Assembly: GCA_045580715.1 (NCBI GenBank)
Contig: JAZNOH010000085.1
Coordinates: 33,585-97,584, forward strand
Reading direction: 5' to 3'
DNA: 64,000 nucleotides
Origin: Clostridia bacterium
GTDB lineage: Bacteria; Bacillota; Clostridia; UBA1381
Positions 2,773 through 28,039 of this stretch are shown piece after piece (position 1 is the stretch's first letter; every line of letters starts with the position of its first letter). The notes below the pieces were generated by a model, which worked only from the letters and a program-made list of their open reading frames with translations, searched no databases and had not been told where the DNA came from. The translations under genes were made by a program, and so were the position numbers.

Positions 2773-5700
2773 ATGAGTTTATCATTCGAAGACTCTCTGA
2801 AAAATAGTGTTACGAACAATATTGCAACTACGGAAAACGAAATTATTGAAGCGGTTGCCGTAATGAGCGTAGACAATACAAGTATAGATAGTCCTTCAAT
2901 TATGACGCTTGATGAAAGTTATGGAATAGCCGCATATTCTGGCGATGATGGTAGTTGGCAGCAGCATGCTGATTATGTATATTATTCAACCTTCTCTGAT
3001 GACAACATTTCTACCATTAGCGATACAAAAGATATTAATCTTGATGGAAAACAGTTTAACATAACTCAAGAAGAAAACTCTCAGTACATACCATTTGAAA
3101 TGTCGAGATACTATGACGGCTATGATTTGGTTAACGCTGTTATTTCTATTCATTATGAGACCAAGAGTGGACGACACGGTGCTTCCAAACCGATAAATGT
3201 AACCTTTAATAATGAAAAGATTAGATTTGGTTGGTTGGTTGATGCTGGTGCTACTCTTGATGCTGGAAAGCTTAAATTTGAAATTCATGCATACGGTACT
3301 GTAACGGGCAATGATGGAGTTTCTTTAAGTTATGTTTGGAAGAGTAAGAGCAATGATACTTTGAATGTACTTCAATCATTGTGCGATTGTGAAGAAGTGG
3401 TCAATAATATAGACGATACTTGGATACAGGAGTTGGTTACAGATGTTGCCGAAAAGGTTGCAGATGAGATTAAAAATGTTGCCGTTGGCGAACAAGTAAC
3501 GGCTGCTGAAAATGCTGCTGCTTCTGCTAAACAATCTGCTAACGATGCAAAACAATATGCAGAAAATGCGTCTACGGCTGCTACCGAAGAAGTTAATAAG
3601 GTTCTTGAAAATTACGCTACAACGAGTTATGTTGATGAAGCAGTTGCTGGTGTTGATGTTACGGAACAGTTGGCGAGTTATGTACGAACATCTGATTTGG
3701 AAACCAATTATTATACAAAGACTGATACTGAGCAAAGAATTTCAAGCGCCCTTGAAACTTACGCTACTACCCAATATGTAGACAACGCTATTGCAGATGC
3801 CGACATTTCTGGCAAGCTTGAAAATTATTATACAAAAGATGAGACTTATAACAAAACAGAAATAGATACTGCTCTTGCTAATGTAAGTGTTGATTTAACT
3901 GGTTATGCTACAGAAAAATATGTAGACGACAAGGCTGCCACCCTCTCTTCTTCTATTTCTACTAATACAGAGAATATTTCTTCTTTGGGCACGACGGTTA
4001 GCAACTTACAAAGCACTGTTAACTCTATAGACACCTCTCCTCGTCTTACTTATGATGTAGAATATAATGATGCAGAAAATCCTGATGTTGGAGAGAATGT
4101 TTTTGTTTTCTATGAAATTGAAAATGAAGGCGCGGAAAATGAAGTAAAAGAAGCTAAAAAGAAGTTCACTATTGTTGGTGGTTCAGGTGGAGGGGCTACA
4201 AGTAGTTCGTTGAAGATTGGCTATGTGACCACTTCTCCCCTTGTTGTTACAACAAACGACGAAGCAATTATTAAATATACTTTTTCTGGTACCGACTCTT
4301 CTGGTGATGCCGTGCCCGAAGGAACCGCGACTTGGAAAGTGGCTGGCAGAATTGTTGCAACAAACACCGCTCTTGCTGGTGAGAACTCTTTCGATGTTAC
4401 GGAATATCTTTCTGTTGGCACTCAAAAGGTTAACTTGTCTATTGTTGACGAAGCTGGTAGTTTGGTCACAAAAACTTGGACTGTGCAAAAAATTGATGTA
4501 AGACTTGAATCTACCTTTAATGACAAGTTGACTTATCCTATTGGAACCATATCTTTTGATTACACGCCTTATGGTGCTATTTCAAAGGTTGTTCATTTTG
4601 TTCTTGATGGTGTAGAAATTGGTACTGTTACCACCTCTTCTTCGGGTATCCCAATGGCATATGAAATTCCCACACAAGAACATGGTGCCCACTTGTTAGA
4701 GGTCTATATGACTGCTGAAATTAATGGTAATGCGATTGAGTCAAATCATATCGTGAAAGATATTATCTGGTATGATTCTGCGAGTGCCATTCCTGTAATT
4801 AGTACAGTATATCAGAATTTTACTGCAAGACAGTATGATGCCACTAATATTGAATATACCGTATATGACCCCACCACGGAAACTCCCACCGTGGAAATTG
4901 CCATAGATGGAAATGTTGTATCGACACCTACGCTTGATAAGGCTACGAATGTGTATTCATTTAAGACGGATGTTGTTGGTGAACATACTATCACCATTAC
5001 TTGCGGTGAGACTGTCAAGACCCTGATTGCCAATATTACAAAACTTGATATAAATATTACTCCCGTTACTGCTGGTTTAGTATTTGATTTTAATCCTTCT
5101 GGTAAATCAAATAATGATGCTGACAGAGTTTGGTCTAATGACACAGTTGCTATGACTGTATCTGATAACTTTGACTGGGTTAATGGTGGTTATCAGTATG
5201 ACGAAAATGGAGACCAGTATTTCTGTATTAAGGCTGGCACTTTTGCAACCATTGATTATCAATTGTTCGCAGACGACGCTAAGAAGAATGGTAAAGAAAT
5301 GAAGTTGGTGTTTAAGACAACCAATGTTGCAAAACCCGACGCCACATTCCTGTCTTGTATGGACAACACAACTGATTCTGACCATATTGGTATTCAGATG
5401 GATGTTCACGAAGCATTCATTTATGGTCAAGCTGGTAAGTTAGACCTCTCTTATTCTGAAGAAGATATTATTGAATTCGAGTTTAATATCTCTAAGAATA
5501 CAGAAGCAATTCCTATGGTAATGGGTTATGAGGATGGTGTTTCTACTCGTCCTATGGTCTACGACGACTCTTACAACTTTACACAGAATACACCTAAAGT
5601 TATATCTTTGGGTTCTGATTACTGTGATTTACATATATACAGGTTTAAGGTTTATAATACCTCTCTTACCGACAGAGGCATTTTGAATAACTTTATTGCC

Positions 5701-8700: not shown

Positions 8701-9921
8701 ACATATACTGCAACCGCTTTTGACGGCAAAGAATTAGCAGACCTCTCCCCCGTTGAGATTTATGCCATGAATAAACTTGGGCTTGCCGAAAGTATCGTTA
8801 CAGATAAAGACCCATACACGATTGTTGTAGGTAACGATGTTGATTATGATGATATTGAATCCGAGTTGTTAATTTCTGAAAAGACATATTTCAATGGCTC
8901 TAATTATGTTGATACTGGTATTCAGTTATTTGATACGGATAAAGATTTTGTACTGGCTATGGACTATGAGTTTTTAGATGGCAATACTACAAATGGCGTT
9001 CTTGCACAGTGTTTCCAAGCAAATGGAACCAATGGCTTTAAACTTTGGTATAGCGGCGGTGTAAGGTTTACTTGGGGTACTTCATATGATGACATTGTTG
9101 ATATCAATAAGCGTGAGATTTTGGTTATTCGTCATGTGAAGGGTGATAACAACTTGTATATCTACAAATCTAATCTTGATGGCGATGAAGTTTTGTCTAC
9201 TGAATTGACAAGAACTAAGTCTACCGTTGGTACTGGCACCCTTGTATTTGGTTGTGCAAGAGCGGATGATGGAATCTACGAAAACTATGGCATTGGCAAC
9301 ATTAACTGGGCTAAGGTATGGTATGCAGACCTTGGGGAAGATGTTTGTAAAAACCTTGCTATGTGGACGCACGAATCTATTACATTGGAGGCTTGTGGAT
9401 TTAGGAAGTATTATTTGAGCGACAATACATCTAAGAGATGTTCATTTAGTTTACTCGCTTCTCACTTATTAGGTAGAACTAAGAGATGGAATGCGTCTAA
9501 TACTAACGCTGGTGGCTGGGCTAATTCCGAATTAAACAATGCTTTGAATACAAGATTGTATAATGCTATGCCCACTCAGATTAGAGAACTGCTTAAGAAA
9601 GTGATTGTTTATTCTTCGGTTGGTCAGATGTCTACCGAGTTAAGTTCCTCTGATTGTTATATTACAATCCCAGCGCTTATTGAAGTAGACCCAACTCAAA
9701 CATCGGAACCTTACAACAGTGAGGGTACTTCTATCTCTTATTTGAGCACAAATGATTCGAGAAAACGAGCATTTGATGGTGGAGATTACAATGCTTATTG
9801 GTTGCGTACACCTAATGTTTCTTATGCGAATTATATTTGGCGTATAGAAACCGATGGTCAAACACAAGGAATTACCAATGCCACGAGTAGCTTGGGTGTA
9901 CTTATTGAAATATCGTTTTAA
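2773..9921 (+). CDS. giant multidomain tail/receptor-binding protein (BppU-like N-term, coiled coil, Ig-like region, CotH-like domain, LRR, Listeria-Bacteroides repeats, LamG-like, DUF6273-like C-term)
   Basis: Uninterrupted 2382-aa ORF with RBS AAAGGAGGA. CotH-like motifs ADNRAKNCFIHY and RKWDLSWGYDMDTSLG (about 6865-6990). LRR-like LxxLxL run (about 7600-8100). Two FAVTF/YTIKY...GW repeats (about 8270-8700). C-terminal GGWANSELN...YWLRTP motif. Confidence 0.85.
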   Translation: MSLSFEDSLKNSVTNNIATTENEIIEAVAVMSVDNTSIDSPSIMTLDESYGIAAYSGDDGSWQQHADYVYYSTFSDDNISTISDTKDINLDGKQFNITQEENSQYIPFEMSRYYDGYDLVNAVISIHYETKSGRHGASKPINVTFNNEKIRFGWLVDAGATLDAGKLKFEIHAYGTVTGNDGVSLSYVWKSKSNDTLNVLQSLCDCEEVVNNIDDTWIQELVTDVAEKVADEIKNVAVGEQVTAAENAAASAKQSANDAKQYAENASTAATEEVNKVLENYATTSYVDEAVAGVDVTEQLASYVRTSDLETNYYTKTDTEQRISSALETYATTQYVDNAIADADISGKLENYYTKDETYNKTEIDTALANVSVDLTGYATEKYVDDKAATLSSSISTNTENISSLGTTVSNLQSTVNSIDTSPRLTYDVEYNDAENPDVGENVFVFYEIENEGAENEVKEAKKKFTIVGGSGGGATSSSLKIGYVTTSPLVVTTNDEAIIKYTFSGTDSSGDAVPEGTATWKVAGRIVATNTALAGENSFDVTEYLSVGTQKVNLSIVDEAGSLVTKTWTVQKIDVRLESTFNDKLTYPIGTISFDYTPYGAISKVVHFVLDGVEIGTVTTSSSGIPMAYEIPTQEHGAHLLEVYMTAEINGNAIESNHIVKDIIWYDSASAIPVISTVYQNFTARQYDATNIEYTVYDPTTETPTVEIAIDGNVVSTPTLDKATNVYSFKTDVVGEHTITITCGETVKTLIANITKLDINITPVTAGLVFDFNPSGKSNNDADRVWSNDTVAMTVSDNFDWVNGGYQYDENGDQYFCIKAGTFATIDYQLFADDAKKNGKEMKLVFKTTNVAKPDATFLSCMDNTTDSDHIGIQMDVHEAFIYGQAGKLDLSYSEEDIIEFEFNISKNTEAIPMVMGYEDGVSTRPMVYDDSYNFTQNTPKVISLGSDYCDLHIYRFKVYNTSLTDRGILNNFIADARNAEEMVSRYDRNQIYDENQNLDPDVLAEKCPWLRVYKISAPYFTNNKSDKVPNTTIQQIYKNGDVVLDNWTCYNAQHSGQGTSSNNYGAAGRNLDFIMNKSGIDGVNPYFKLGDGTEASEITLTRTSVPVAYLNAKVNIASSNNLTNAMLANRYNEFNPYNRPFVRDEGVDTSFIKDTMEFHNCVIFIQETNEDLSTHREFADNDWHFYAIGNIGDSKKTDNTRLTDMNDKYECCVEIMDVELPLSDFPIDTMYNAMGYKEDETTHEKKYIWVKNENLGILYEKIDGEYVLTTDTEVDLTKTYYVDILEHDDFSEDYTYGWRYLYEGDDEEENAEVFDYCKQKWIELYRFITTSTDEEFKNRFDEYFVKDTALYYYLFTTRYCMADNRAKNCFIHYSKTGEVDAEGNPIRKWDLSWGYDMDTSLGLNNYGKQVYRYGLEDTDVDEKGEEVFRESDSTFFCRVRDLFPAELKAMYNTLESKNAWHAESFINKADEWQSQFPEELWRVDIERKYIRTYNGSFINGKGDAQFLVNMANGKMKYHRRQWERSQEKYMASKYQSSIASSDNSVFRCSVPNGDLVVQPNYRLKLTPYAYMYLNVKYGTQNPIQLRAEPNIEYEIPFDGEKADIVDVYSSSLIQDFGDLSSCYVATADTSKASKVKRLIFGNSTEGYDNPNFTTLTTGANYLLEELNIENVSGLTQSLNLSALNNLRELYAHGSNIGGVTFADGGKIEIAELPAINALTMKNLMYLATLDITDLSKLTTLTVENCDTVDLLTILNNAPNINRVRIVGIDWSLEDTALLERLYAMKGIDRNGYNADQSVLTGRVHVPVIRQQQLYDYQNAWSDLEIVADTIIEQFAVTFMNADGSVLEVQYVDKGEDAVDPTTRTDNPLSPTIASTVEYDFTFAGWDSALTDVFSERTITAIYTESLRSYTIKYVSKGITMQETTGLYGENVPYTGVSPTYTAEETGYVYYLFNRWDKSGFIDGDKTVNAIFDKFTYTATAFDGKELADLSPVEIYAMNKLGLAESIVTDKDPYTIVVGNDVDYDDIESELLISEKTYFNGSNYVDTGIQLFDTDKDFVLAMDYEFLDGNTTNGVLAQCFQANGTNGFKLWYSGGVRFTWGTSYDDIVDINKREILVIRHVKGDNNLYIYKSNLDGDEVLSTELTRTKSTVGTGTLVFGCARADDGIYENYGIGNINWAKVWYADLGEDVCKNLAMWTHESITLEACGFRKYYLSDNTSKRCSFSLLASHLLGRTKRWNASNTNAGGWANSELNNALNTRLYNAMPTQIRELLKKVIVYSSVGQMSTELSSSDCYITIPALIEVDPTQTSEPYNSEGTSISYLSTNDSRKRAFDGGDYNAYWLRTPNVSYANYIWRIETDGQTQGITNATSSLGVLIEISF

Positions 9922-23815: not shown

Positions 23816-24433
23816 ATGGCAAAGTTAAAAGATACAGTTGTTGATGGAAATATAGAATTAACAGGCGATGTTACACTTCAAAATACAATGGCGATTAATG
23901 GAATAGCCACTGATGGAACTGAGCGTCAAAATTACCAAGCGTGTAATCATAATAATAACTGCATTGTTGGCTACGGAAATTATACGGCTGATAATGGCAA
24001 TACCCATATCTATGGCGTTGCTGTTAAGTCTATTACAAAAGACAATGATGTTACAGTAGACGGCATTCAGATTGCTCATACAGATGTTTCTACTGTAACG
24101 AGCCTTTCTAGTGGATGGAATTATTATGGCAGTTCTAGTGCCAACCTTCCAACGGTAAGACGCTATGGCAAGGTTGTAAGTTTAACTGGTGCTTTGACTA
24201 ATACGGCAGCAGTTACGATAAATACTTCTCATGTTAAAGTGTTCACCATTCCTTCTGGATATAGACCCTCACAGGATGTACTCGTTATGTGTCAGGGTTC
24301 TGGCGCTAACGAATTTGTTTTGCAAGTTAAAGCCAATGGCGAAGTGTACTTTGGTAGATATGGTACATCCTCTTTTGCATCGGTTTCCTCTGGTTCTTGG
24401 TTCCCATTCCATGCTTGTTGGGTTATGGAATAA
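23816..24433 (+). CDS. tail fibre tip-like protein, function unknown
   Basis: 205 aa with RBS AAGGAGAA. Last gene of the + strand structural block, followed by a strong terminator. Confidence 0.65.
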   Translation: MAKLKDTVVDGNIELTGDVTLQNTMAINGIATDGTERQNYQACNHNNNCIVGYGNYTADNGNTHIYGVAVKSITKDNDVTVDGIQIAHTDVSTVTSLSSGWNYYGSSSANLPTVRRYGKVVSLTGALTNTAAVTINTSHVKVFTIPSGYRPSQDVLVMCQGSGANEFVLQVKANGEVYFGRYGTSSFASVSSGSWFPFHACWVME

Positions 24434-25058: not shown

Positions 25059-26492
25059 ATGATGCGTATGACTACTTTTGACAGAGAGAAGAAGGTCAGA
25101 AGAGCGTTTGACACTAGTAAGGTATTAAGAACGGCTGCCTATATTCGGGTGTCGAGCGACGAGCAGGTTAAGCATGGCTTCTCGATTGAGGCGCAGAAAG
25201 AGGGTTTGCAGAAATACGCCGAAGAACGAGGTTATAGGATTGTAGAATGGTACATTGATGAAGGTAAGTCTGCTCGTGGTAAAACTACGAAAAGGAAAGA
25301 ATATTTAAGACTTATCGAAGATGCTAAAAGAGGCAAATTTGAAATGATTATATTCAAATGTTTGGACAGATGGTTTAGGAATATAAGTGAGTATTACAAG
25401 GCTCAATCTGTTTTGGATGAAAAGGGTATTAACTGGGAATGTAGCGAAGAAGACTTTGATACAACCACTCGTGATGGTCGTTGGAAACTTCATATTTACC
25501 TCATGCTTGCACAAGATGAAGCGGACAAAACAAGTGAGCGTATCAATTATGTATTCGCACATAAAATTCAAAACAGAGAAGCTATATCTGGTTCCCAACC
25601 ATATGGCTTCAAAGTAAAAGAGATAGACGGTTTTAAAAGGGTTGTTAAAGACGAAAGTGTGTCTTGTATTGTTGATGATGTTTTTGATAACTTTGAACTT
25701 TTCAATTCTAAGAGAGCAACACTTTATTTCATACAAGACAAATACGATATTAAAGTGGAATACAAGTTAATAGGTCATATATTAACTAATCCTTATTATT
25801 ATGGTCATTATCGTGGTGTAGATGATTATATATGGGGTGGTTCTTATATTACAAAAGAACGCTACGACAAAATTCAGAAAATGTTAAAGAAAAATGTCAA
25901 AGCTCGTAAAAATAAAAAGAACCAAGATTATATTTTTAGCGGATTATTAGTATGCAGTATTTGTGGTTGCAAACTTTCGGCTCATTGTACCGACCTTCCT
26001 TTAGCAGATGGTAGCAAAAAAACTTATTTATTTTACAGATGCAGCAGGGCTGCTATGGCTAACAAATGTACTTCAAGGGGAACATTTAGTGAGATTAAGT
26101 TAGAGCAAAAACTAATACAGTCAATAGAAGAAGAAATTGAGGATTATATTTGCGAATATGAATTGGATGTCAAAAAAGAAAAGAAACCCAAAGTTGATAT
26201 TAAAAGTGTCAAAGAAGAGATACAACGGTTAAATGTTTCTTGGAGGAAGGGTCGTATGGAAGAATCGGAATATGATTATGAGTTTGAAAGATTGCAAAAG
26301 AAATTAGAAAAGGCACAAGAGGAGATTCCAGAAAAACACGATTTAACTCCTTTGTATGATTTCTTAAATAGTGGCTGGAAAGATATTTATGACACCTTAA
26401 CTTCTGTTGAGAAGAGGGCTTTGTGGCGCTCGGTAATTGACATAATAGAAGTTGATGTGTTGAATAAGGAATTTAAGATTAAGTTTATATAA
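25059..26492 (+). CDS. large serine recombinase (integrase)
   Basis: AAYIRVSSDEQVKHGFSIEAQ catalytic-serine motif. Resolvase domain, recombinase domain, Zn-ribbon CSICGCKL...YRCSRAAMANKC and a C-terminal coiled coil. The ATG at 25068 has the better spacing from AAAGGG. Confidence 0.9.
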   Translation: MMRMTTFDREKKVRRAFDTSKVLRTAAYIRVSSDEQVKHGFSIEAQKEGLQKYAEERGYRIVEWYIDEGKSARGKTTKRKEYLRLIEDAKRGKFEMIIFKCLDRWFRNISEYYKAQSVLDEKGINWECSEEDFDTTTRDGRWKLHIYLMLAQDEADKTSERINYVFAHKIQNREAISGSQPYGFKVKEIDGFKRVVKDESVSCIVDDVFDNFELFNSKRATLYFIQDKYDIKVEYKLIGHILTNPYYYGHYRGVDDYIWGGSYITKERYDKIQKMLKKNVKARKNKKNQDYIFSGLLVCSICGCKLSAHCTDLPLADGSKKTYLFYRCSRAAMANKCTSRGTFSEIKLEQKLIQSIEEEIEDYICEYELDVKKEKKPKVDIKSVKEEIQRLNVSWRKGRMEESEYDYEFERLQKKLEKAQEEIPEKHDLTPLYDFLNSGWKDIYDTLTSVEKRALWRSVIDIIEVDVLNKEFKIKFI

Positions 26493-26513
26493 AACCCATT
26501 TTCGAATGGGTTT
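26492..26513 (+). terminator. hairpin terminator after integrase
   Basis: AAACCCATT ttcg AATGGGTTT (9-bp stem, 4-nt loop). Confidence 0.6.
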
Positions 26514-26526
26514 AAAACTTACTCTT

Positions 26527-26576
26527 ACTTTGCTAAACTTACCCACACCAGTTGGAGTAGGTGCGAAAAGCAAAAT
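26527..26576. other. candidate attP core (imperfect palindrome)
   Basis: TTTGCTaaaCTTACCCACACC-agtt-GGAGTAGGTGCGaaAAGCAAA. The arms match at about 14 of 21 positions around a central AGTT. The island is locally GC-richer and sits directly after the integrase terminator. Confidence 0.35.
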
Positions 26577-26636
26577 AAAATAACTAAAGAAAATAGCCTT
26601 AAATACTGATATAATAGGCTTTAAGGAGTGATTGTA

Positions 26637-26864
26637 ATGAAGGGTGATAGAGAATTATTTAATCTTGCAAAGAATTATGTAATGGTCTTTGATTTATATG
26701 AAAGAGCCAGAATAAACAATGAAGAGTTTGCAGAAGAAATGGATAAGATAAGAAACGAAGTTTTAAAAAAGGGATATAGCATTGATAAATTTGTAGAATA
26801 TCAAAGTCTATACCGTGAATTATCTATTAAAGACTATTACGAGTTTATCAAAACTTTGGATTAA
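26637..26864 (+). CDS. hypothetical protein
   Basis: ORF with AAGGAG 8 nt upstream of the ATG at 26637 (the ORF track starts at a GTG at 26628). TGATATAAT extended -10 at 26607-26615. Confidence 0.6.
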   Translation: MKGDRELFNLAKNYVMVFDLYERARINNEEFAEEMDKIRNEVLKKGYSIDKFVEYQSLYRELSIKDYYEFIKTLD

Positions 26865-26888: not shown

Positions 26889-27242
26889 ATGAAAGACACA
26901 AACAGACCTATCCATTATATTCGTAAAAACAGAGAAGACGAAGCTGTGATTTATTTAAAGGATAACGACCAAAAAGCAGCACAAAAATTATTTTGTTATA
27001 TGTATGCCACTGACCATAATATTAATGTATTAGGTGAAACAATGGATATTGAAGAAGTGAAAAATTGTAATGTAATGCTGATTGCATCTGCTTCTATGCT
27101 GACAAGAGACGAAAAAGAATATCGTAAAATTGAAAAGGGATTAAAGAAAAAAGGAATTAGAATTGAAGTTGCTACAAGTGGAGATAATGCCGACAGATAT
27201 GTTGATATGATGTTAAAGTTATCTCGTAAAGGACGCATATAA
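26889..27242 (+). CDS. hypothetical protein with degenerate resolvase-like N-terminal-domain pattern (no catalytic Ser)
   Basis: 117 aa with RBS AGGAGTGAATGCACCATG. AVIYLKDND...NVMLIASASMLTRDEKEYRKIEKGLKKKGIRIEV parallels the resolvase pattern xxxYxRVSxxxQ...vlvxxlDRlxRxxxxxxxixxxlxxxGvxl. Confidence 0.55.
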   Translation: MKDTNRPIHYIRKNREDEAVIYLKDNDQKAAQKLFCYMYATDHNINVLGETMDIEEVKNCNVMLIASASMLTRDEKEYRKIEKGLKKKGIRIEVATSGDNADRYVDMMLKLSRKGRI

Positions 27243-27247
27243 AAAGT

Positions 27248-27276
27248 ATTGAAAATGTATCATTGTGATGGTATAA
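27248..27276 (+). promoter_or_regulatory. orphan consensus SigA-type promoter
   Basis: TTGAAA-17 nt-TATAAT with TGG immediately upstream of the -10 (extended -10). No ORF follows before the terminator. Confidence 0.6.
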
Positions 27277-27282
27277 TCTTTT

Positions 27283-27349
27283 AAGCACTCACAACACTAT
27301 GTATACGCAAAAGACCCTTGTAGAAAATAATCTACAAGGGTCTTTTTTT
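27283..27349 (+). ncRNA. candidate small RNA of about 65 nt (promoter-to-terminator unit)
   Basis: The predicted TSS at about 27283 gives about 27 nt of unstructured leader (AAGCACUCACAACACUAUGUAUACGCA), then a 14-bp perfect terminator hairpin and a U tract. There is no RBS or credible ORF. Confidence 0.45.
27311..27349. terminator. strong rho-independent terminator (also faces the convergent minus-strand genes)
   Basis: AAGACCCTTGTAGA aaataa TCTACAAGGGTCTT followed by TTTTT. On the other strand it is followed by UUUUG. Confidence 0.85.
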
Positions 27350-27418
27350 ACGACACTGGATGTACGAGCAGCAATGATGTCGATATCTAATATTTATTAT
27401 ATTCAGTAGCATTGAATT

Positions 27419-27808
27419 TTATTCATTAACTGATTCCCAATCGCTAAATCTAAATTCGGGGTGTGTTATATATTCTTTTGCTATTGCTTTAAAATCTTTG
27501 GACTTGTTGTTGTATGTAGGCTTTAGATTGTGTAATTTGTCCATCTTTTCATATCCCATAGGAAATGGTTGCCTGAAAAATCTACCGTCCCAATCTCCCC
27601 AGTTCTTACTACTGTTAATGTAGGTATTGCAAAAATCTGCAAGAATTAGATATTCATCGTTATCGGTCTCTTTTGCAATTTCTTCGCATAAGGACTTTGC
27701 TTTTAATGCTCTGTCCTCTGCATTGCGACCAATCCATCCGTGACCCCAATTACCTCTAATATCTTCTAAAAGTAACTGAACTAATAGAATTTTTTCTCTT
27801 GTATTCAT
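27419..27808 (-). CDS. hypothetical protein
   Basis: 129-aa ORF with RBS AAGGAGAAAAACATATAAATG. Last gene of the minus-strand block. Confidence 0.65.
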   Translation of the reverse strand: MNTREKILLVQLLLEDIRGNWGHGWIGRNAEDRALKAKSLCEEIAKETDNDEYLILADFCNTYINSSKNWGDWDGRFFRQPFPMGYEKMDKLHNLKPTYNNKSKDFKAIAKEYITHPEFRFSDWESVNE

Positions 27809-27841
27809 TTATATGTTTTTCTCCTTAAAATAAATATCTTT

Positions 27842-28039
27842 TTATGGCGCAATTCCCATATCCCATTCCCAATAGTCTTCCCCATCAGGTGTTTCATAGG
27901 TTTTTACCCAATCTTTATATTCTTCTTCTCCGAGCAGGGCACGAACCATTTGGTCAATTACCCACATTTTATGATGTGCTCCGTCAATCTGACCATATGA
28001 CCATGCATAGCTTAACGCATTTTTAATTCTTTCTTCCAT
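27842..28039 (-). CDS. conserved small phage protein (YGQIDGAHHKMWVIDQMVRAL motif)
   Basis: 65-aa ORF. I recognise the motif as recurring in unrelated phages, with unknown function. Confidence 0.6.
   Translation of the reverse strand: MEERIKNALSYAWSYGQIDGAHHKMWVIDQMVRALLGEEEYKDWVKTYETPDGEDYWEWDMGIAP

Follow-up and report, generated by a model that had tools for sequence, protein, structure and literature searches.

A predicted small-RNA gene at the end of an integrase-accessory operon

The 64-kb stretch of phage DNA analyzed here (the window) carries, between two convergent operons, a unit composed of an extended −10 promoter, a conserved unstructured stretch of about 25 nt, and a strong bidirectional terminator. 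In our reading, to which we assign a probability of about 0.6, the unit is a phage gene for a small RNA, belongs to a general kind already known, and acts through its conserved 5' region; transcription of the unit, the two ends of the RNA, and its possible mode of action are inferred from the signals and their conservation. An initial annotation of this DNA had proposed a noncoding promoter-to-terminator unit of ~65 nt where the lysogeny module borders the convergent early genes and had suggested a prophage regulator whose 5' part would pair with targets. The location is confirmed, and comparison of 10 lineages lends support to the proposed structure. The relevant features, in window coordinates and from left to right, are the following.

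After the tail-fiber genes, − strand: XRE-type HTH gene
25059-26492, + strand: large serine integrase, followed by the 75/78-aa and 117-aa genes
26492-26518: the integrase's own terminator
26519-26576: GC-richer dyad region of ~55 bp with covarying arms (e.g., GTCCT..TACCCA..TGGGTA..AGGAC in lineage L033)
26607-26615, + strand: promoter P2, conserved extended −10 TGaTATAAT (alignment of the 13 lineages with this intergenic region)
26889-27242, + strand: 117-aa resolvase-N-like gene, stop codon at 27240-27242, whose 3' end carries the unit
27249-27254, + strand: −35 hexamer TTGAAA of promoter P_A, with TTGA invariant in 8 aligned short-form relatives
27269-27277, + strand: extended −10 TGgTATAAT of promoter P_A, seen as TGnTAyAAT in 10/10 distinct lineages with a spacer of 17 to 18 nt
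27284-27349, + strand: predicted small RNA of ~64 to 66 nt, from the geometry of promoter and terminator
27284-27308, + strand: CA-rich, unstructured 5' region (AGCACUCACAACACUAUGUAUACGC) conserved in 10 lineages, the candidate functional part
27309-27349, both strands: bidirectional intrinsic terminator serving the small RNA as well as the 78/117-aa operon (+ strand) and the early operon (− strand)
27350-27418, no strand assigned: element B, a conserved noncoding block of ~70 nt beyond the terminator (TGGATGTACGAGCAGCAnTGATGy..TCTAATATTAgTATAT..TTTAnAnTTTATnC)
27419-27808, − strand: 129-aa gene, the last of the convergent early operon, 84% identical in the relative G118:C33

Phage genome and operon context

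Contig C85, from which the window is taken, measures 101.5 kb and far exceeds in length all others of its bin (251 contigs, 1.8 Mb). The contig is phage DNA: + strand tail-fiber genes end at 24433, and all genes from 27419 to 64000 lie on the − strand, including a guanylate kinase gene, a ThyX-like gene, and six tRNAs. The relative G118:C33 (JBGVIT010000033.1, from a Clostridia metagenome-assembled genome) is 154.7 kb long with overlapping ends, indicating a full phage genome of ~155 kb, of which C85 alone represents about two thirds. The part missing from C85 is found on contigs C232, C89, and C245 of the same bin, so the phage is split over at least 4 contigs; its presence in this bin is no proof of its host.

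Homologues of the 117-aa protein number 89, with identities from 97% down to 48%, and the contigs that carry them reach 161 kb; the order of integrase, 75-aa gene, and 117-aa gene is kept in every one of them. Promoter P2 precedes the 75/78-aa and 117-aa genes. Within 26607-26639, an AAGGAG ribosome-binding site is followed by an ATG at 26637, and the listed 78-aa reading frame (GTG at 26628) most likely starts there instead, giving 75 aa as in the relatives. Since transcripts from P2 would meet no terminator before 27309, the small-RNA sequence would also form the 3' untranslated region (UTR) of the P2 operon. A shared 3' end together with an own promoter thus points to the layout of 3'-UTR small RNAs that have promoters of their own. 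Upstream of P2, the dyad at 26519-26576 is the best candidate for the attP site of the serine integrase. The unit itself was considered as attP and rejected: some lineages of the same integrase type do not have it, and the dyad at 26519-26576 is the better one.

On the other side of the terminator, relatives carry unrelated genes (47 to 252 aa) in the position of the 129-aa gene. The order of the 129-aa gene and a 65-aa gene is swapped between the window (27419-28039) and G118:C33 (locus L016, 8348-8977), and the end of the early operon beside element B is a hotspot of cassette exchange.

Promoter, predicted RNA, and terminator

Promoter P_A (TTGAAA-17-TGgTATAAT) matches the consensus at 11 of 12 positions and has the TG of an extended −10 promoter of the sigma-70/sigma-A type. 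The sigma-A-type consensus is the right yardstick because the genes here carry AGGAG ribosome-binding sites. Three sites with at least 11/12 matches plus TG occur in the window, compared to 0.185 (standard deviation, 0.41) expected from 200 first-order Markov simulations; the chance frequency of sites of this grade is thus 16 times below the observed one. On the early strand of C85, all five perfect TTGACA-17-TATAAT sites lie between genes, point in the right direction, and have conserved counterparts in the complete relative G118:C33, whose early region holds >20 further perfect sites. Consensus sigma-A promoters thus plainly appear, from their placement and conservation, to serve as working promoters in this phage group. 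The initial annotation had the promoter sequence right but placed it one base low, at 27248-27276 instead of 27249-27277, and its term "orphan" is only partly apt, as the −35 hexamer begins 6 nt past the stop codon of the 117-aa gene.

Between 17.8 and 43 kb of G118:C33 (loci L017 to L019), >20 perfect promoters form a dense array, each leading into a CA-rich leader (acacaacac...) and a small gene. Such an array resembles the early region of large virulent phages, yet an integrase is present.

The position of the −10 box puts the predicted start at 27283-27285. The following 25 to 27 nt, counted from ~27284, have a folding energy of only −1.1 kcal/mol on their own and are thus unstructured, whereas the 69 nt from 27284 to 27352 fold at −25.2 kcal/mol (z = −7.8 versus shuffles). 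Positions +1 to +24 are both conserved and unstructured, that is, an accessible single strand of the kind expected of a base-pairing small RNA. No ribosome-binding site is found here, as the initial annotation stated; its claim that there is no open reading frame either must be qualified by a 36-aa frame (27299-27409), which opens at +16 without a Shine-Dalgarno sequence and passes through the terminator.

The terminator hairpin consists of arms at 27309-27324 and 27331-27346, a loop of AAATAA, and T's that run to 27349. Its stem has 16 pairs, namely a 12-bp core containing G/C pairs and 4 A-U pairs, so the 14 bp counted initially were roughly right and the hairpin with its U tract stands. Four A's upstream and seven T's downstream, between convergent genes, give it the features of a bidirectional terminator. 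A pattern scanner omitted the hairpin because its outer A-U pairs take part of the T run. Hairpin and U tract are found in 16/16 lineages, with folding energies of −14.6 to −26.3 kcal/mol. The stems vary widely in sequence among lineages through compensatory substitutions, yet every one of them pairs.

A search of Rfam 15 at permissive E values found no family at the gathering threshold in the window region; the best match, rnk_leader (25.3 versus 50 bits), was driven by the terminator. Nor did four relatives give a family at threshold, their weaker hits likewise being due to the terminator. It is credible, on these comparisons, that the unit represents a new phage small-RNA family of a known kind that has no Rfam match.

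How would such a unit work? The extended −10 promoter, of the host sigma-A type and just past the 117-aa gene, would start transcription at ~27284, and the strong bidirectional terminator would halt it at ~27347-27349. The product would be an RNA of ~65 nt, with ~24 nt of unstructured, CA-rich, conserved sequence followed by the terminator hairpin. The conserved 5' region would be the working part, which could either base-pair with some phage or host mRNA or bind a factor that recognizes the CA-rich leaders of early mRNAs.

Conservation of the unit among related phages

Relatives were taken from the DNA of a graded set of 117-aa homologues and from further loci found by pattern scans. Among those sampled, the unit lies directly after the homologous gene in 10 distinct lineages: the window, L026, L028, L029, L030, L031, L032, the L040/L048 group, L051, and L053. 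In the alignment of 8 short forms, the invariant columns are TTGA of the −35 hexamer, the TG.TA.AAT box, and CA.T.ACAAC at +3 to +12, while the spacer varies; in the two long forms (L051 and L053), which lie outside this alignment, the same boxes are kept, as read by eye. The conserved start of the transcript, its first ~12 to 24 bases, reads GCAyTyACAAC...ATGTATATAC. From the −35 hexamer to the end of this conserved seed, the block is 65 to 90% identical to the window, compared to 60 to 79% when only the third codon positions of the neighboring gene are considered. L048 combines 90% identity of this block with only 54% identity of the neighboring protein. This pattern is as expected for a working promoter, an RNA 5' end constrained in sequence, and a terminator constrained only in shape, although recent exchange of the block, rather than selection, could lie behind part of the conservation.

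Only lineages at a greater distance have lost the promoter; it is kept in close relatives, where its absence beside a retained terminator had been named in the initial annotation as one outcome that would speak against the proposal. The terminator occurs without promoter or 5' region in L034, in the L036 group, and in a distant module of G480:C6. Since several lineages of the same integrase type (L034, the L036 group, G118:C33, and G480:C6) do without promoter and 5' region, the unit is dispensable.

Searches farther afield returned little. A blastn search of the 1.6-kb region against a public phage collection in distant mode, single-protein scans of viral contigs, and a scan of viral contigs for the exact terminator stem pattern gave no match. 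Among 164 family genomes, the seed pattern matched once, as did its reversed control, but the pattern was so strict that it missed even the window. Scans of 239 genomes of the order and of a class-wide sample of 399 scored genomes revealed no integrated prophage and yielded only the free phage contig G118:C33 and the distant module in G480:C6.

Element B and the variable slot

Element B is present as a single copy and occurs in 16/16 lineages that keep the junction, including those without P_A. Its neighbors change on both sides, and nearly all lineages have a different gene to the right of it; it marks a mosaic boundary. A coding role was considered and rejected, since stop codons shift and indels of 1 to 2 nt, not multiples of three, break the frames. 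No conserved fold was found on either strand, no similar site in the host bin, and no target common to C85 and G118:C33. Element B has no likeness to dif, and a Bacillus subtilis-type dif site was not found in the bin. On its − strand, NGNATA-17-TATA(C/A)T is followed by a conserved 30 nt running into the terminator. Three identities are possible for element B: another small RNA, convergent to the first; a 3' UTR that has been conserved; or a boundary of recombination.

The position between the 117-aa gene and the terminator is itself variable. Two lineages (L051 and L053) keep the promoter and 5' block but have a second, covarying hairpin inserted, followed by UUUUGG, which gives predicted RNAs of ~120 nt (z = −5.7 and −6.2). 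The arms of this hairpin are CGGCAACA/UGUUGUCG versus CGGCAA/UUGCCG. This extra hairpin (UUUCGGCA...), whose 3' arms show compensatory changes, separates the 5' block from the main terminator; it is located at ~2885-3010 in L051 and L053 and at 9060-9123 on the − strand in L016, and it may be a tandem weak terminator. In G118:C33, the extra hairpin and the terminator are present, and the promoter and 5' block are absent. The lysogeny module of this phage is distant (35% identity of its 117-aa homologue), in contrast to the convergent 129-aa gene with 84% identity. In L033, the position holds a short, unrelated insert whose promoter is weak. In L042, with an integrase type of 543 aa, the 117-aa-like gene has its stop codon overlapped by a perfect TTGACC-17-TATAAT (region 5207-5385). 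From this promoter, a structured RNA of ~145 nt (z = −4.5), unrelated to that of the window, is predicted to run to the same terminator, next to element B. These variants, together with the loss of the unit elsewhere, indicate that the position behaves as a slot for small transcription units.

What might such a slot be for? The 5' block (CACAACAC) resembles, in the same sense, the CA-rich leaders that follow the early promoters of this phage, so a decoy role is conceivable. A doubtful extension of this idea is that the slot is an exchangeable locus for small RNAs, be it the short form, the long form, or the structured L042 RNA, and that the window RNA, maybe together with an RNA from element B, would mimic early leaders and titrate a factor for their translation or stability.

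Target searches

The 5' region was scanned for targets with RNAduplex and compared to shuffled-seed controls. No target scored above shuffled seeds in C85, C89, C232, and C245 (~144 kb of assembled phage), in the relatives' own 5-kb loci, or in the 1,848 translation start regions of the host bin, which may not be the true host. The best duplexes, at −20 to −22 kcal/mol, are within the range of the shuffled seeds, and pairing to the ribosome-binding sites of the 78-aa and 117-aa genes extends over only 5 bp without covariation. A long perfect antisense target is ruled out within the ~144 kb of assembled phage, and pairing through a short seed is compatible with the scans.

Alternative explanations

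Does the unit have to act through its RNA? The promoter might fire to give an RNA that is functionless or whose transcription alone matters. The unit might be a relic, an early-type promoter and CA-rich leader cassette whose gene was lost, or its promoter and terminator, directed against the early operon, might shield the lysogeny genes from early-operon read-through. The 5' region (CACAACAC, then AUG) is indeed like the CA-rich leaders after early promoters, several lineages dispense with the unit, and the target scans are negative. Left unexplained are the invariance of +3 to +12 where the flanking protein has fallen to 54 to 70% identity and the fact that long forms, despite their additional hairpin, retain this 5' block, and we consider this explanation unlikely. 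It is rather improbable that the conserved block is a DNA site, an operator or accessory site for the integrase, the resolvase-like proteins, or the HTH regulator, with the promoter likeness being secondary. A dyad in the spacer (TATCAT-N4-ATGrTA), perfect in L051 and L053, overlaps the −10 box and could be an operator, and the unit lies ~700 nt from the best attP candidate. However, L030 and L031 have lost the dyad while hexamers and transcribed block stay; the window holds no second copy of it; the block from +1 to +24 has no dyad except GTATATAC; and lineages with the same integrase type do without the block.

Other explanations fare worse. A tiny peptide from the AUG at 27299 (M-Y-I/T...) draws on the retention of AUG-UAU-AUA in most lineages, but there is no Shine-Dalgarno sequence, whereas the neighboring genes have AGGAG, and the frame has 7 codons in L028 and L029, 15 to 36 or more in other lineages, where its sequence is unrelated; translation of the window's copy would have to pass through the terminator. 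The peptide is very unlikely. Scarcely probable is an antitoxin RNA of a type I toxin-antitoxin pair of the par/fst or txpA/RatA kind, with a bidirectional terminator in common with a convergent toxin mRNA: convergent transcripts would meet at one terminator beside an integrase module, but the defining feature already fails, since no conserved small hydrophobic reading frame lies opposite the unit. Moreover, every lineage has its own last − strand gene (47 to 252 aa), element B frames are broken by 1- to 2-nt indels, and transcript overlap is limited to the terminator. That the promoter likeness is a chance product of AT-rich DNA beside an ordinary terminator deserves next to no credence. The region has 33% G+C, and weak 9/12 promoter-like matches are no more frequent than in shuffles, but a site of the quality of P_A is expected 0.19 times per window, and its hexamers, TG, and spacing are retained in 10 lineages, a conservation that already contradicts chance.

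Two known identities were also tried and rejected. A short transcript from a late promoter with Q-type antitermination, as for lambda 6S and StxS, does not fit, with no same-strand genes downstream and all genes from 27419 to 64000 on the opposite strand. Arbitrium aimX does not fit either: the upstream genes encode 75/78 and 117 aa with no matching Pfam domain, and no gene of AimR size is present.

Significance and comparison with known systems

Phage regulatory RNAs are documented almost only for Gram-negative bacteria, and the unit would be a conserved, clearly bounded candidate in a family of uncultivated ~155-kb phages of gut Clostridia. It provides a concrete candidate of ~65 nt and a defined slot, the 3' end of an integrase-accessory operon, in which related phages carry different predicted small RNAs. 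The general view of such RNAs is unchanged unless the idea of leader mimicry holds; if it does, immunity or timing in this large temperate Clostridia phage would include a layer of control by RNA.

The 3'-UTR-derived type I small RNAs MicL and DapZ of enterobacteria are chromosomal and Hfq dependent, with known targets. As in these RNAs, the promoter lies at the extreme end of the upstream reading frame, the intrinsic terminator is common with the upstream mRNA, and a short conserved single-stranded stretch precedes the terminator hairpin. The window unit differs in being phage borne and from Clostridia, in its negative target scans, and in having no sequence similarity (Rfam negative). In lysogens of P4 and of P1/P7, lytic genes are controlled by small phage RNAs, CI RNA and c4 RNA, respectively. 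Both arise by processing of longer leaders and show extended complementarity to sites of their own phage, whereas no extended complementary site for the window RNA is present in the ~144 kb of assembled phage. Loci of the par/fst and txpA/RatA types are common beside the integrases of Firmicute prophages, and here too predicted convergent small transcripts meet at a bidirectional terminator. Unlike these loci, the window has no toxin reading frame, and complementarity ends at the terminator.

In the arbitrium system of the phi3T and SPbeta group, aimX follows aimR and aimP and is AimR dependent, and AimX was later shown to act as a peptide (PMC8612738, PMC10769878). The window unit and aimX have in common a predicted short transcript in a Firmicute temperate phage beside lysis-lysogeny genes, the promoter of aimX being regulated; they differ in that the window unit follows 75/78-aa and 117-aa resolvase-like genes. 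Trans-acting small RNAs of prophages and phages include DicF, IpeX, AsxR/AgvB, StxS, and a lambda small RNA that is reported to act on the host replication machinery (PMC12197685; bioRxiv 10.1101/2024.10.31.621285). The RNAs of this group are thought to base-pair, all described cases being in Gram-negative hosts, and the review itself holds no occurrence of "Gram-positive," "Bacillus," or "Clostridi" (PMC12197685). StxS differs from the window unit in having a late promoter with downstream genes on the same strand. Like the RNAs of this group, the window unit is a small promoter-to-terminator unit in a temperate phage, and such units often lie at module boundaries.
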